Shown piece by piece: positions 31,097 through 31,809 of a stretch of 41,822 nt of DNA. A program made the translations under genes and the position numbers. The notes under the pieces were generated by a model, which was not told the origin of the DNA, ran no database searches, and saw only the letters and a program-made list of their open reading frames with translations. Source of the stretch: a virus. Its lineage: Duplodnaviria; Heunggongvirae; Uroviricota; Caudoviricetes. The number at the start of each line of letters is the position of its first letter. The first letter of the stretch is position 1. The stretch lies in the IMG/VR virus record IMGVR_UViG_2897346870_000006; one strand, written 5' to 3'.

Positions 31097-31486
31097 TCAG
31101 GCGGCTGCACCCGCCGTTTTCTCGTACTTACTGATAGTGATCTCGACCTTCCCTTCCGGGATAACCGGTCCCCACTCCACCAGCATTCTTTTCACCTGGC
31201 TGTCGTCTTCCCACACACCCGCGTGGGTCAGGGCGTCAAACAGCGCCTTGTTATAGTTGTCCAGATCGCGGATCCGGTTATCCGGAGGAAACAACACGAT
31301 CTCCACTGAAGCAGGTGCCGACGTTGGTTTCGGCAGACGACGTAACTGCTCAACTATTGCTGTGCACGCCGCACTCTGGAATTTTCGCCCCGCCGCGCTT
31401 ATCAGGCTCTTACCAGCAAATGCCACTTTGTTGGGGTGTCGCCAGTAGGTGTTCACGCTGGGTGGAAAAGGCAGAATCAGCTTCAT
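31097..31486 (-). CDS. rusA: RusA-family Holliday junction resolvase
   Basis: 129 aa; motifs LPFPPSVNTYWRH and RDLDNYNKALFDALTHAGVWEDDSQV match RusA. Confidence 0.85.
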   Translation of the reverse strand: MKLILPFPPSVNTYWRHPNKVAFAGKSLISAAGRKFQSAACTAIVEQLRRLPKPTSAPASVEIVLFPPDNRIRDLDNYNKALFDALTHAGVWEDDSQVKRMLVEWGPVIPEGKVEITISKYEKTAGAAA

Positions 31487-31809
31487 ACTTTCAGCCCCCT
31501 CTCATGTAACCAGTGGGCTGCACGCAGCCTGGCGTTTTCCTCACCAGCAAGCAGTGCGCGGATAATCCCGGCCACCTCGCTGTCGTCGTCCTTCACCGCG
31601 GTATGAAGCGTGATGCCCCGGGCCACGCCACGCTTTATCGTGATGACGCCTTTTTTCTCCAGTGCGCGAAGATGCTCCACCGCTGCATTCACTGAACGGT
31701 ATCCCAGCATGGTAGCCACCTCCTGATTGGTTGGCGGGAAGCCACGTTCTTTCTGGTAAGAAATCAGCATATCCAGCACCTGCTGCTGGCATTGAGTTAA
31801 CGTCGTCAT
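31483..31809 (-). CDS. LexA N-terminal DNA-binding-domain-like protein lacking the S24 peptidase domain
   Basis: MTTLTQCQQQVLDMLISYQKERGFPPTNQEVATMLGYRSVNAAVEHLRALEKKGVITIKRGVARGITL parallels the E. coli LexA winged-helix domain (LTARQQEVFDLI...[36 protein letters not shown]); only 108 aa, with no Ser/Lys dyad; start overlaps the upstream stop by 1 nt. Confidence 0.65.
   Translation of the reverse strand: MTTLTQCQQQVLDMLISYQKERGFPPTNQEVATMLGYRSVNAAVEHLRALEKKGVITIKRGVARGITLHTAVKDDDSEVAGIIRALLAGEENARLRAAHWLHERGLKV

Follow-up and report, generated by a model that had tools for sequence, protein, structure and literature searches.

The stretch of DNA analyzed here (hereafter the window; 41,822 nucleotides, IMG/VR record IMGVR_UViG_2897346870_000006) is a lambdoid Escherichia coli prophage located at argU, beside tRNA-Arg (the DLP12 site), and the region is 100% identical to a prophage of E. 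coli strain Ecol_448. The gene of interest lies on the minus strand, like all the parts of it described below, at positions 31483 to 31809 (stop codon included), and encodes a protein of 108 amino acids carrying the DNA-binding domain (DBD) of LexA. This LexA-DBD gene was taken from the list of open reading frames (ORFs) and is matched by Pfam PF01726 (E=2.9e-19) and, end to end, by phrog_362 (PHROG 362, "transcriptional repressor"; residues 1 to 108 against positions 1 to 106 of 106; E=7e-58). RefSeq WP_000210176.1 is the same 108-residue coding sequence in the identical prophage (L001). The translation start region, read from the sequence, spans 31807 to 31818: the ATG (31807 to 31809) shares 1 base with the TAA that ends the upstream PerC/yfdN gene (TAATG), to which the LexA-DBD gene is translationally coupled, and 5 nucleotides upstream of the ATG is a Shine-Dalgarno motif, GGGGG (31814 to 31818). 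The gene is functional, conserved, and already annotated. The kind of protein is also known, and truncated phage homologs of LexA have a precedent in gp6 of GIL01.

The N-terminal part of the protein, residues 1 to 68 (31606 to 31809), is a LexA-type winged helix-turn-helix. The LexA_DNA_bind profile (PF01726) covers residues 1 to 65 over all its 65 positions (69 bits, cutoff of 23.7), and BLASTP gives 35 of 68 identical residues with E. coli LexA (51%, residues 1 to 68; E=2e-21). An AlphaFold2 (AF2) model, built with 21 homologs and having a mean pLDDT (predicted local distance difference test score) of 78, shows helices at 6 to 22, 28 to 35, and 40 to 52 and strands at 56 to 59 and 65 to 68. 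The LexA DBD entries 1lea and 3jso are the top sequence matches in the PDB. They also come first when the model is compared with the PDB by Foldseek (root mean square deviation [rmsd] of 1.4 to 1.6 A over 67 to 69 residues), with generic winged-helix regulators well behind, so the similarity is specific to LexA and does not reflect the winged-helix fold in general. A reading of this DNA made from the sequence alone had described a LexA winged helix that stops before the S24 fold, with a generic winged helix as the alternative, and the results bear out the description on both counts. PADLOC gave the protein no membership in a defense system, just a weak match at the level of the winged helix-turn-helix.

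The C-terminal part departs from LexA. Pfam found no Peptidase_S24 domain (PF00717) in the 108 residues, and the LexA equivalog profile TIGR00498 is matched at positions 1 to 91 of 203 alone, with a score of 67.4 against a cutoff of 110.95. In place of the S24 domain, residues 75 to 103 (31501 to 31587) are predicted to form an amphipathic helical hairpin (AF2 pLDDT of 83 to 84) with helices at 75 to 87 and 93 to 103, preceded by a short, flexible linker of low confidence (71 to 74). Four residues of the hairpin (L86, A93, A97, and L101) are invariant in close relatives, and two of them, A97 and L101, remain so down to about 40% identity. LexA dimerizes through its C-terminal domain, and C-terminal helices mediate dimerization in many winged-helix repressors. 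Among the structural neighbors found by Foldseek, BlaI, MarR-type, and MntR-type proteins have aligned C-terminal helices. From the model, the hairpin may thus be a dimerization module replacing the C-terminal domain of LexA. The sequence-only reading had also raised poor heterodimerization with host LexA, a proposal that finds no support in a protein that lacks the LexA C-terminal domain and has a conserved hairpin of its own.

The motif LLAGEE (residues 85 to 90; 31540 to 31557) aligns with VAAGEP in the cleavage region of LexA. We rejected it as a relic cleavage site, since the Ala-Gly pair is not conserved: A88-G89 of this allele is AN, AK, or VG in close relatives, where position 88 is A, S, or V, and the pair is absent from distant relatives. 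LLAGEE is therefore probably not a cleavage site. Having neither an S24 peptidase nor a conserved Ala-Gly site, the protein must be insensitive to RecA-stimulated autocleavage, and the RecA insensitivity proposed from the sequence alone stands. The protein is not LexA, of which three defining features fail.

The LexA-DBD gene (327 bp) is present at 95 to 100% identity in 2,232 of 5,426 complete E. coli genomes (41%), with one to four copies in each. The same protein (94 to 100% identity) is encoded by phages SfV, SfII, SfIV, cdtI, mEp460, and Ayreon and by many Stx2/Stx2c phages, where the annotations include "LexA DNA binding domain protein" at one end and, incorrectly, "SOS-response repressor and protease LexA" at the other. 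An exhaustive HMMER search retrieved full-length relatives at 40 to 52% identity that have the DBD as well as the C-terminal hairpin in common, with source names including Cronobacter, Enterobacter, Cedecea, and Klebsiella. The protein is a member of a large family of lambdoid-prophage proteins in Enterobacterales. Comparison of 90 alleles revealed 69 synonymous and 46 nonsynonymous variant codons, with a third-position bias. Residues 35 to 48 are invariant, and most of the variation falls in the linker and the C terminus. These features show that the gene is under purifying selection.

These data bear directly on whether the gene could be a decaying, functionless fragment of a captured lexA. 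It has half the length of LexA, and the resemblance of LLAGEE to VAAGEP could be taken as a remnant of the lost domain. Such a fragment would hardly be found nearly unchanged in two-fifths of the E. coli genomes, with an excess of synonymous changes, nor would it keep a hairpin foreign to LexA across Escherichia, Citrobacter, Cronobacter, Enterobacter, Klebsiella, and Cedecea while losing the Ala-Gly pair. We regard decay as extremely improbable; the conservation data essentially exclude it.

Stand-alone proteins of 65 to 150 residues with a LexA DBD are frequent in the viral structure library BFVD, for example in tectiviruses and in mycobacteriophage Wildcat. In further proteins (P0129, P0130, P0146, P0150-P0153, P0157-P0160, P0164, P0180, P0188, and P0213), two LexA DBD stretches occur in one chain. 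To judge from their sequences, such chains could be "dimers" that occur naturally as one polypeptide and have no S24 domain.

The recognition helix lies at residues 39 to 52 (SVNAAVEHLRALEK; 31654 to 31695). LexA contacts the bases through Ser39, Asn41, Ala42, Glu44, and Glu45 (PMC3091678), and the phage protein keeps four of these five residues (Ser39, Asn41, Ala42, and Glu45), with Glu44 changed to valine. Overall, SVNAAVEHLR and the LexA helix differ in 3 of 10 residues. Among the close loci, the phage helix is the same in 80 of 80, in spite of variable flanking modules. These residues make it plausible that the protein binds a CTGT-type half-site, and occupation of SOS boxes is plausible but unproven. 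It is doubtful that the specificity is identical to that of LexA, since the replacement of Glu44 suggests a site preference or an affinity that is not the same.

At the locus, the LexA-DBD gene is part of an uninterrupted early and delayed-early block on the minus strand (28882 to 34387), as indicated by the annotation of the identical prophage and by a scan for promoters and terminators. The order of the block is cro-like ymfT, cII-like ymfL, DUF4222, an HTH_36 replication gene, PerC/yfdN, LexA-DBD, RusA, KilA-N, DUF968, and Q. The cI-like ymfK, divergent to the block, is annotated "LexA family protein." No promoter-like site was seen on the minus strand between the immunity region (around 34400) and the LexA-DBD gene, and no minus-strand terminator-like site was seen before around 29595. 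By analogy with lambdoid operons, the gene would be delayed-early and silent in the lysogen, its position implying that the protein is made only after inactivation of the cI-like repressor or on infection.

The downstream neighbor encodes a RusA Holliday junction resolvase (31097 to 31486, minus strand; PF05866, E=8.5e-15). Its start overlaps the stop of the LexA-DBD gene in an ATGA, read from the sequence at 31483 to 31486, an arrangement indicative of translational coupling. The same 4-nucleotide overlap is found in the distant relatives L002, L004, and L008. RusA lies directly downstream of the gene in every E. coli match listed, and in the distant loci L002 to L009 the gene occupies the lambdoid nin region with RusA adjacent or one gene downstream. 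The upstream slot is taken by Dam methyltransferase or PerC among the matches listed. In the window, it holds a PerC-family (yfdN) gene (31809 to 32303, minus strand; PF06069, E=1.2e-9, and annotations). The product of this gene has two parts, an N-terminal part of about 100 residues matching phrog_23071 and a PerC/ANR-like C-terminal part, and Dam methyltransferase replaces it in many relatives and in other phages. At the other end of the block, an ompC-like porin gene (27611 to 28693, plus strand) is inserted as a moron between Q and the lysis genes, in the opposite orientation; nmpC is a comparable porin moron in DLP12.

A sister subfamily brings the LexA-DBD proteins close to the SOS response. 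The proteins P0138, P0191, and P0212 are 39 to 42% identical to the window protein over the full length (MAFFT), have the same hairpin, carry an N-terminal tail of 25 to 30 residues, and are encoded in cassettes that begin with near-consensus SOS boxes; in tblastn, P0138 matched close phage homologs over residues 32 to 135 with 41 to 43% identity. To search for SOS boxes, we used a 20-bp position weight matrix (PWM) derived from 25 E. coli boxes. As positive controls, real lexA promoters, with boxes directly upstream, scored 14 to 26, and Gifsy-type dinI promoters scored 17 to 30. The scan of IMG/VR for the sister subfamily yielded 80 loci, of which 73 had enough upstream sequence, and 69 of these 73 have a near-consensus SOS box scoring at least 17 (range of 17 to 30, mostly 25 to 30) within 1.5 kb upstream. 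The order of the sister cassette is a terminator, a −35 element, an SOS box that overlaps the −10 element, dinI, a conserved protein of about 77 residues, LexA-DBD, a conserved protein of about 67 residues, RusA or DUF968, and Q. The box thus overlaps a sigma-70-like promoter, and nothing beyond the −35, the −10, and the SOS box is conserved in these promoter regions. The family is therefore repeatedly embedded in LexA-controlled prophage operons, beside the SOS modulator DinI.

This order is that of the LexA-repressed operons of Gifsy-1, -2, and -3, where dinI is followed by an antirepressor gene (gfoA, gftA, or gfhA) and by irsA (Lemire, Figueroa-Bossi and Bossi 2011, PMC3121763). There, 19 bp separate the LexA box from the dinI ATG (PMC3121763, PMC8072944), and nalidixic acid induces dinI 14- to 23-fold in Gifsy-1 and Gifsy-2 and 4.6-fold in Gifsy-3 (PMC8072944). 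From gene order and size alone, we infer that the LexA-DBD gene of the cassette is irsA; by position, the protein of about 77 residues would be an antirepressor of the GfoA/GftA type. The source names of the sister proteins do not include "IrsA," just "DNA-binding protein/LexA family," and no Gifsy record was among the phage-collection matches of P0138 (tblastn). The study of the Gifsy operons makes no remark on a likeness of irsA to LexA (PMC3121763), and we found no report in the searchable literature of the third gene of a dinI-antirepressor operon as an uncleavable LexA head.

The two small proteins flanking the sister gene, that of about 67 residues with a PPRIDRTY motif, have no Pfam match; their genes lie at 4713-4961 and 5405-5608 in L007, at 797-1024 and 1515-1718 in L210, and at 5387-5620 and 6067-6267 in L211. 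No S24 domain was found in the repressor genes beside the L007 and L211 cassettes. In L211 alone, dinI is replaced by an ORF of 95 residues resembling the RecA C-terminal domain (PF21096, E=9e-10), preceded by tandem SOS boxes (scores of 26.7 and 17.4; the whole at 4907 to 5262). To judge from its sequence, this ORF may encode another phage SOS modulator.

Taken as a whole, these features lead us to propose, with a probability of roughly 0.4, that the LexA-DBD protein is a dimeric regulator, proof against RecA, that binds operators at LexA-like sites, probably those of the host. The hairpin would replace the C-terminal domain of LexA as the dimerization element, giving a small protein of the dimeric repressor type, and the dimer would recognize palindromic operators whose half-sites are LexA-like (CTGT-type). 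Activated RecA (RecA*) could not inactivate it, so it would serve as a damage-proof surrogate of LexA in lytic growth, reoccupying SOS-type operators, or occupying them differentially, after the cleavage of host LexA. The sister protein of Gifsy type would also close its own LexA-controlled dinI-antirepressor operon. In the loci examined, the LexA-DBD gene abuts or overlaps its neighbors (Dam or PerC upstream, RusA downstream) and has no linked noncoding DNA. This leaves little room for an operator private to the phage, and the most economical target becomes the host chromosome, or SOS-type boxes in general. The host chromosome would be the sole constant partner of the gene.

Several observations weigh against this proposal, and some of them favor a regulator in the manner of gp6, i.e., a captured LexA DBD with its own non-SOS operator that activates or represses a particular phage or host promoter in lytic growth and is without effect on the SOS regulon. 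Glu44 is kept in no member of the phage family, and Glu45 is changed to leucine in 70 of 78 proteins of the sister subfamily. Genuine LexA proteins of gamma- and betaproteobacteria, in contrast, have a glutamate at position 44 in 76 of 77 cases and a glutamate or aspartate at position 45 in 77 of 77. (This reference set came from a scan of contigs yielding at least 80 loci; a LexA-type recognition helix was seen in 77 of 80, and the six that were translated were all full-length lexA genes.) The family-wide loss of Glu44 and the frequent leucine at position 45 in the sister subfamily argue for an altered specificity. The precedent for such a regulator is direct, since gp6 of GIL01 binds GaCACAnnTGTGaC and activates P3 (PMC6182141).

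The search for SOS boxes in the window itself points the same way. The best PWM score was 14.2, inside the coding sequence of the DUF968 gene and within the range of shuffled sequences, and the scan found no SOS box upstream of the LexA-DBD gene. The sequence-only reading had suggested looking for CTGT-N8-ACAG sites in the prophage: the window has two exact ones, both in coding sequence (PWM scores of 5.9 and 7.4), nothing exceeded the shuffled expectation, and CTGT/ACAG palindromes with spacings of 0 to 15 were not enriched in the window either. The inverted repeats of the regulatory intergenic regions of the window include no convincing palindrome, a result amounting to no more than absence of evidence. 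One AT-rich, imperfect, SOS-box-like repeat with CTA for CTG (TACTATATAA-N8-TTATATATTA; PWM score of 6.5) lies at 28792 to 28819, in the intergenic region between Q and the late genes.

Two SOS boxes were found in the related locus L042. One, a 20/20 match to the consensus (TACTGTTTTTATATACAGTA; 2444 to 2463), falls within a 230-residue S24-type cI gene, in the part that codes for the linker; it is absent from the window and common to 34 IMG/VR loci. The other, close to the consensus (TACTGTAAAAATAAACAGTG; 10547 to 10566), overlaps codons 4 to 10 of a 350-residue DNA methylase gene that begins 4 to 5 kb downstream of LexA-DBD; about one in four of the related loci has it. Of the 17 loci with the box internal to cI, 15 carry the LexA-DBD gene. 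As a control, it was also found in 61 of the 65 loci sharing the cII allele of the window, whatever their cI allele, so the co-occurrence reflects module linkage. The idea that this box is tied to the gene was thus rejected and adds to the points against the proposal. In L007, a strong SOS box (25.1; 9164 to 9183) is flanked by the lysozyme gene and by the 3′ end of a 202-residue gene on the minus strand, with no obvious gene downstream.

While the lost glutamates and a window prophage free of SOS boxes suit a regulator with its own operator, other features count against it. Regulator-operator pairs of mosaic phages normally travel together, and no noncoding DNA is linked to this gene. Likewise, no candidate palindrome was found in the regulatory intergenic regions of the window, and sister-subfamily promoter regions conserve just the −35, the −10, and the SOS box. 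Finally, the late genes of lambdoid phages are under the control of Q antitermination, and the window prophage has a Q gene. We therefore hold a gp6-like role to be somewhat unlikely.

A further difficulty for the proposed SOS-type regulator comes from genetics. [quoted passage not shown] Furthermore, no function, DNA-binding, or SOS data for the enterobacterial family were found in the searchable literature. The lack of a regulatory phenotype of irsA deletions (PMC3121763) would also suit a nontranscriptional role, in which the protein is a DNA- or protein-binding accessory of recombination or replication in the nin region, e.g., with RusA, or a competitor titrating a factor that interacts with LexA. 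In line with this, rusA is tightly and widely adjacent, and often translationally coupled, from 100% down to about 40% identity. Nevertheless, the gene order of the nin region is conserved anyway, RusA is missing from the L210 cassette, and it was detected in just 5 of 80 sister loci (tblastn, E<=1e-5, a search that may miss divergent RusA). Moreover, conservation in the protein is highest at those residues of the recognition helix through which LexA contacts bases. An accessory role of this kind appears quite improbable.

The proposed regulator of LexA-like sites can be carried one step further, to a phage-encoded, RecA-proof "SOS off-switch" by which IrsA-like proteins would reoccupy the vacated LexA operators after prophage induction. 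This extension is unlikely as it stands, but its consequences would be wide. Such a switch would shut off host sulA, umuDC, tisB, and colicins, which are harmful to phage yield, as well as the LexA-controlled antirepressor operons of the same and of coresident prophages, thereby setting a hierarchy among prophages. It would constitute a widespread and unrecognized layer of SOS control, present in about 41% of E. coli genomes in one to four copies. More generally, if SOS-type operators are bound, a large share of E. coli, Shigella, Klebsiella, and Salmonella strains would carry prophage genes able to override the host DNA damage response, with RecA unable to switch them off. This would bear on prophage induction (including that of Stx phages), competition between coresident prophages, SOS mutagenesis, and antibiotic tolerance, and it would provide a function for irsA, the third gene of the Gifsy dinI-antirepressor operon, for which none has been given since 2011. 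If a private site is bound instead, the protein would be one more small phage regulator.

Among known systems, the nearest in fold is E. coli LexA, which has the same N-terminal winged helix-turn-helix (51% identity, rmsd of 1.4 to 1.6 A, Ser39, Asn41, Ala42, and Glu45 kept). The difference lies in residues 75 to 103, an unrelated helical hairpin where LexA has its S24 peptidase and dimerization domain, and the 108-residue protein has neither the Ser119/Lys156 dyad nor a conserved counterpart of the Ala84-Gly85 site. PHROG 362 and WP_000210176.1 ("LexA family transcriptional regulator") represent the same family in the same slot between Dam or PerC and RusA, show no difference from the window protein, and owe their names to homology.

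By its sequence, the protein falls in the class of stand-alone phage LexA DBDs, of which gp6 of the Bacillus thuringiensis tectivirus GIL01 is the sole characterized example that we found. This truncated LexA homolog has GaCACAnnTGTGaC as its binding site and is an activator of the late promoter P3 (PMC6182141). Compared by description, both are phage LexA DBDs without an S24 peptidase. However, gp6 derives from a Gram-positive LexA, it is DBD-only, and its model ends in a 14-residue C-terminal beta-hairpin wing and not in a helical hairpin. The operator and activator role of gp6 have been demonstrated, whereas the window protein is known from its sequence and model, and gp6 activates a late promoter, while lambdoid late transcription uses Q.

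The Gifsy irsA genes provide the closest likeness in gene order. The sister subfamily takes exactly their place as third gene of a cassette led by an SOS box and dinI, and the window gene, like the sister gene, lies just upstream of RusA, DUF968, and Q. It differs from the Gifsy type in having no SOS box, dinI, or genes for the proteins of about 77 and 67 residues, and in lying within a delayed-early operon. By analogy, the LexA-DBD gene of the window may be viewed as a paralog by position of the Gifsy irsA homologs.

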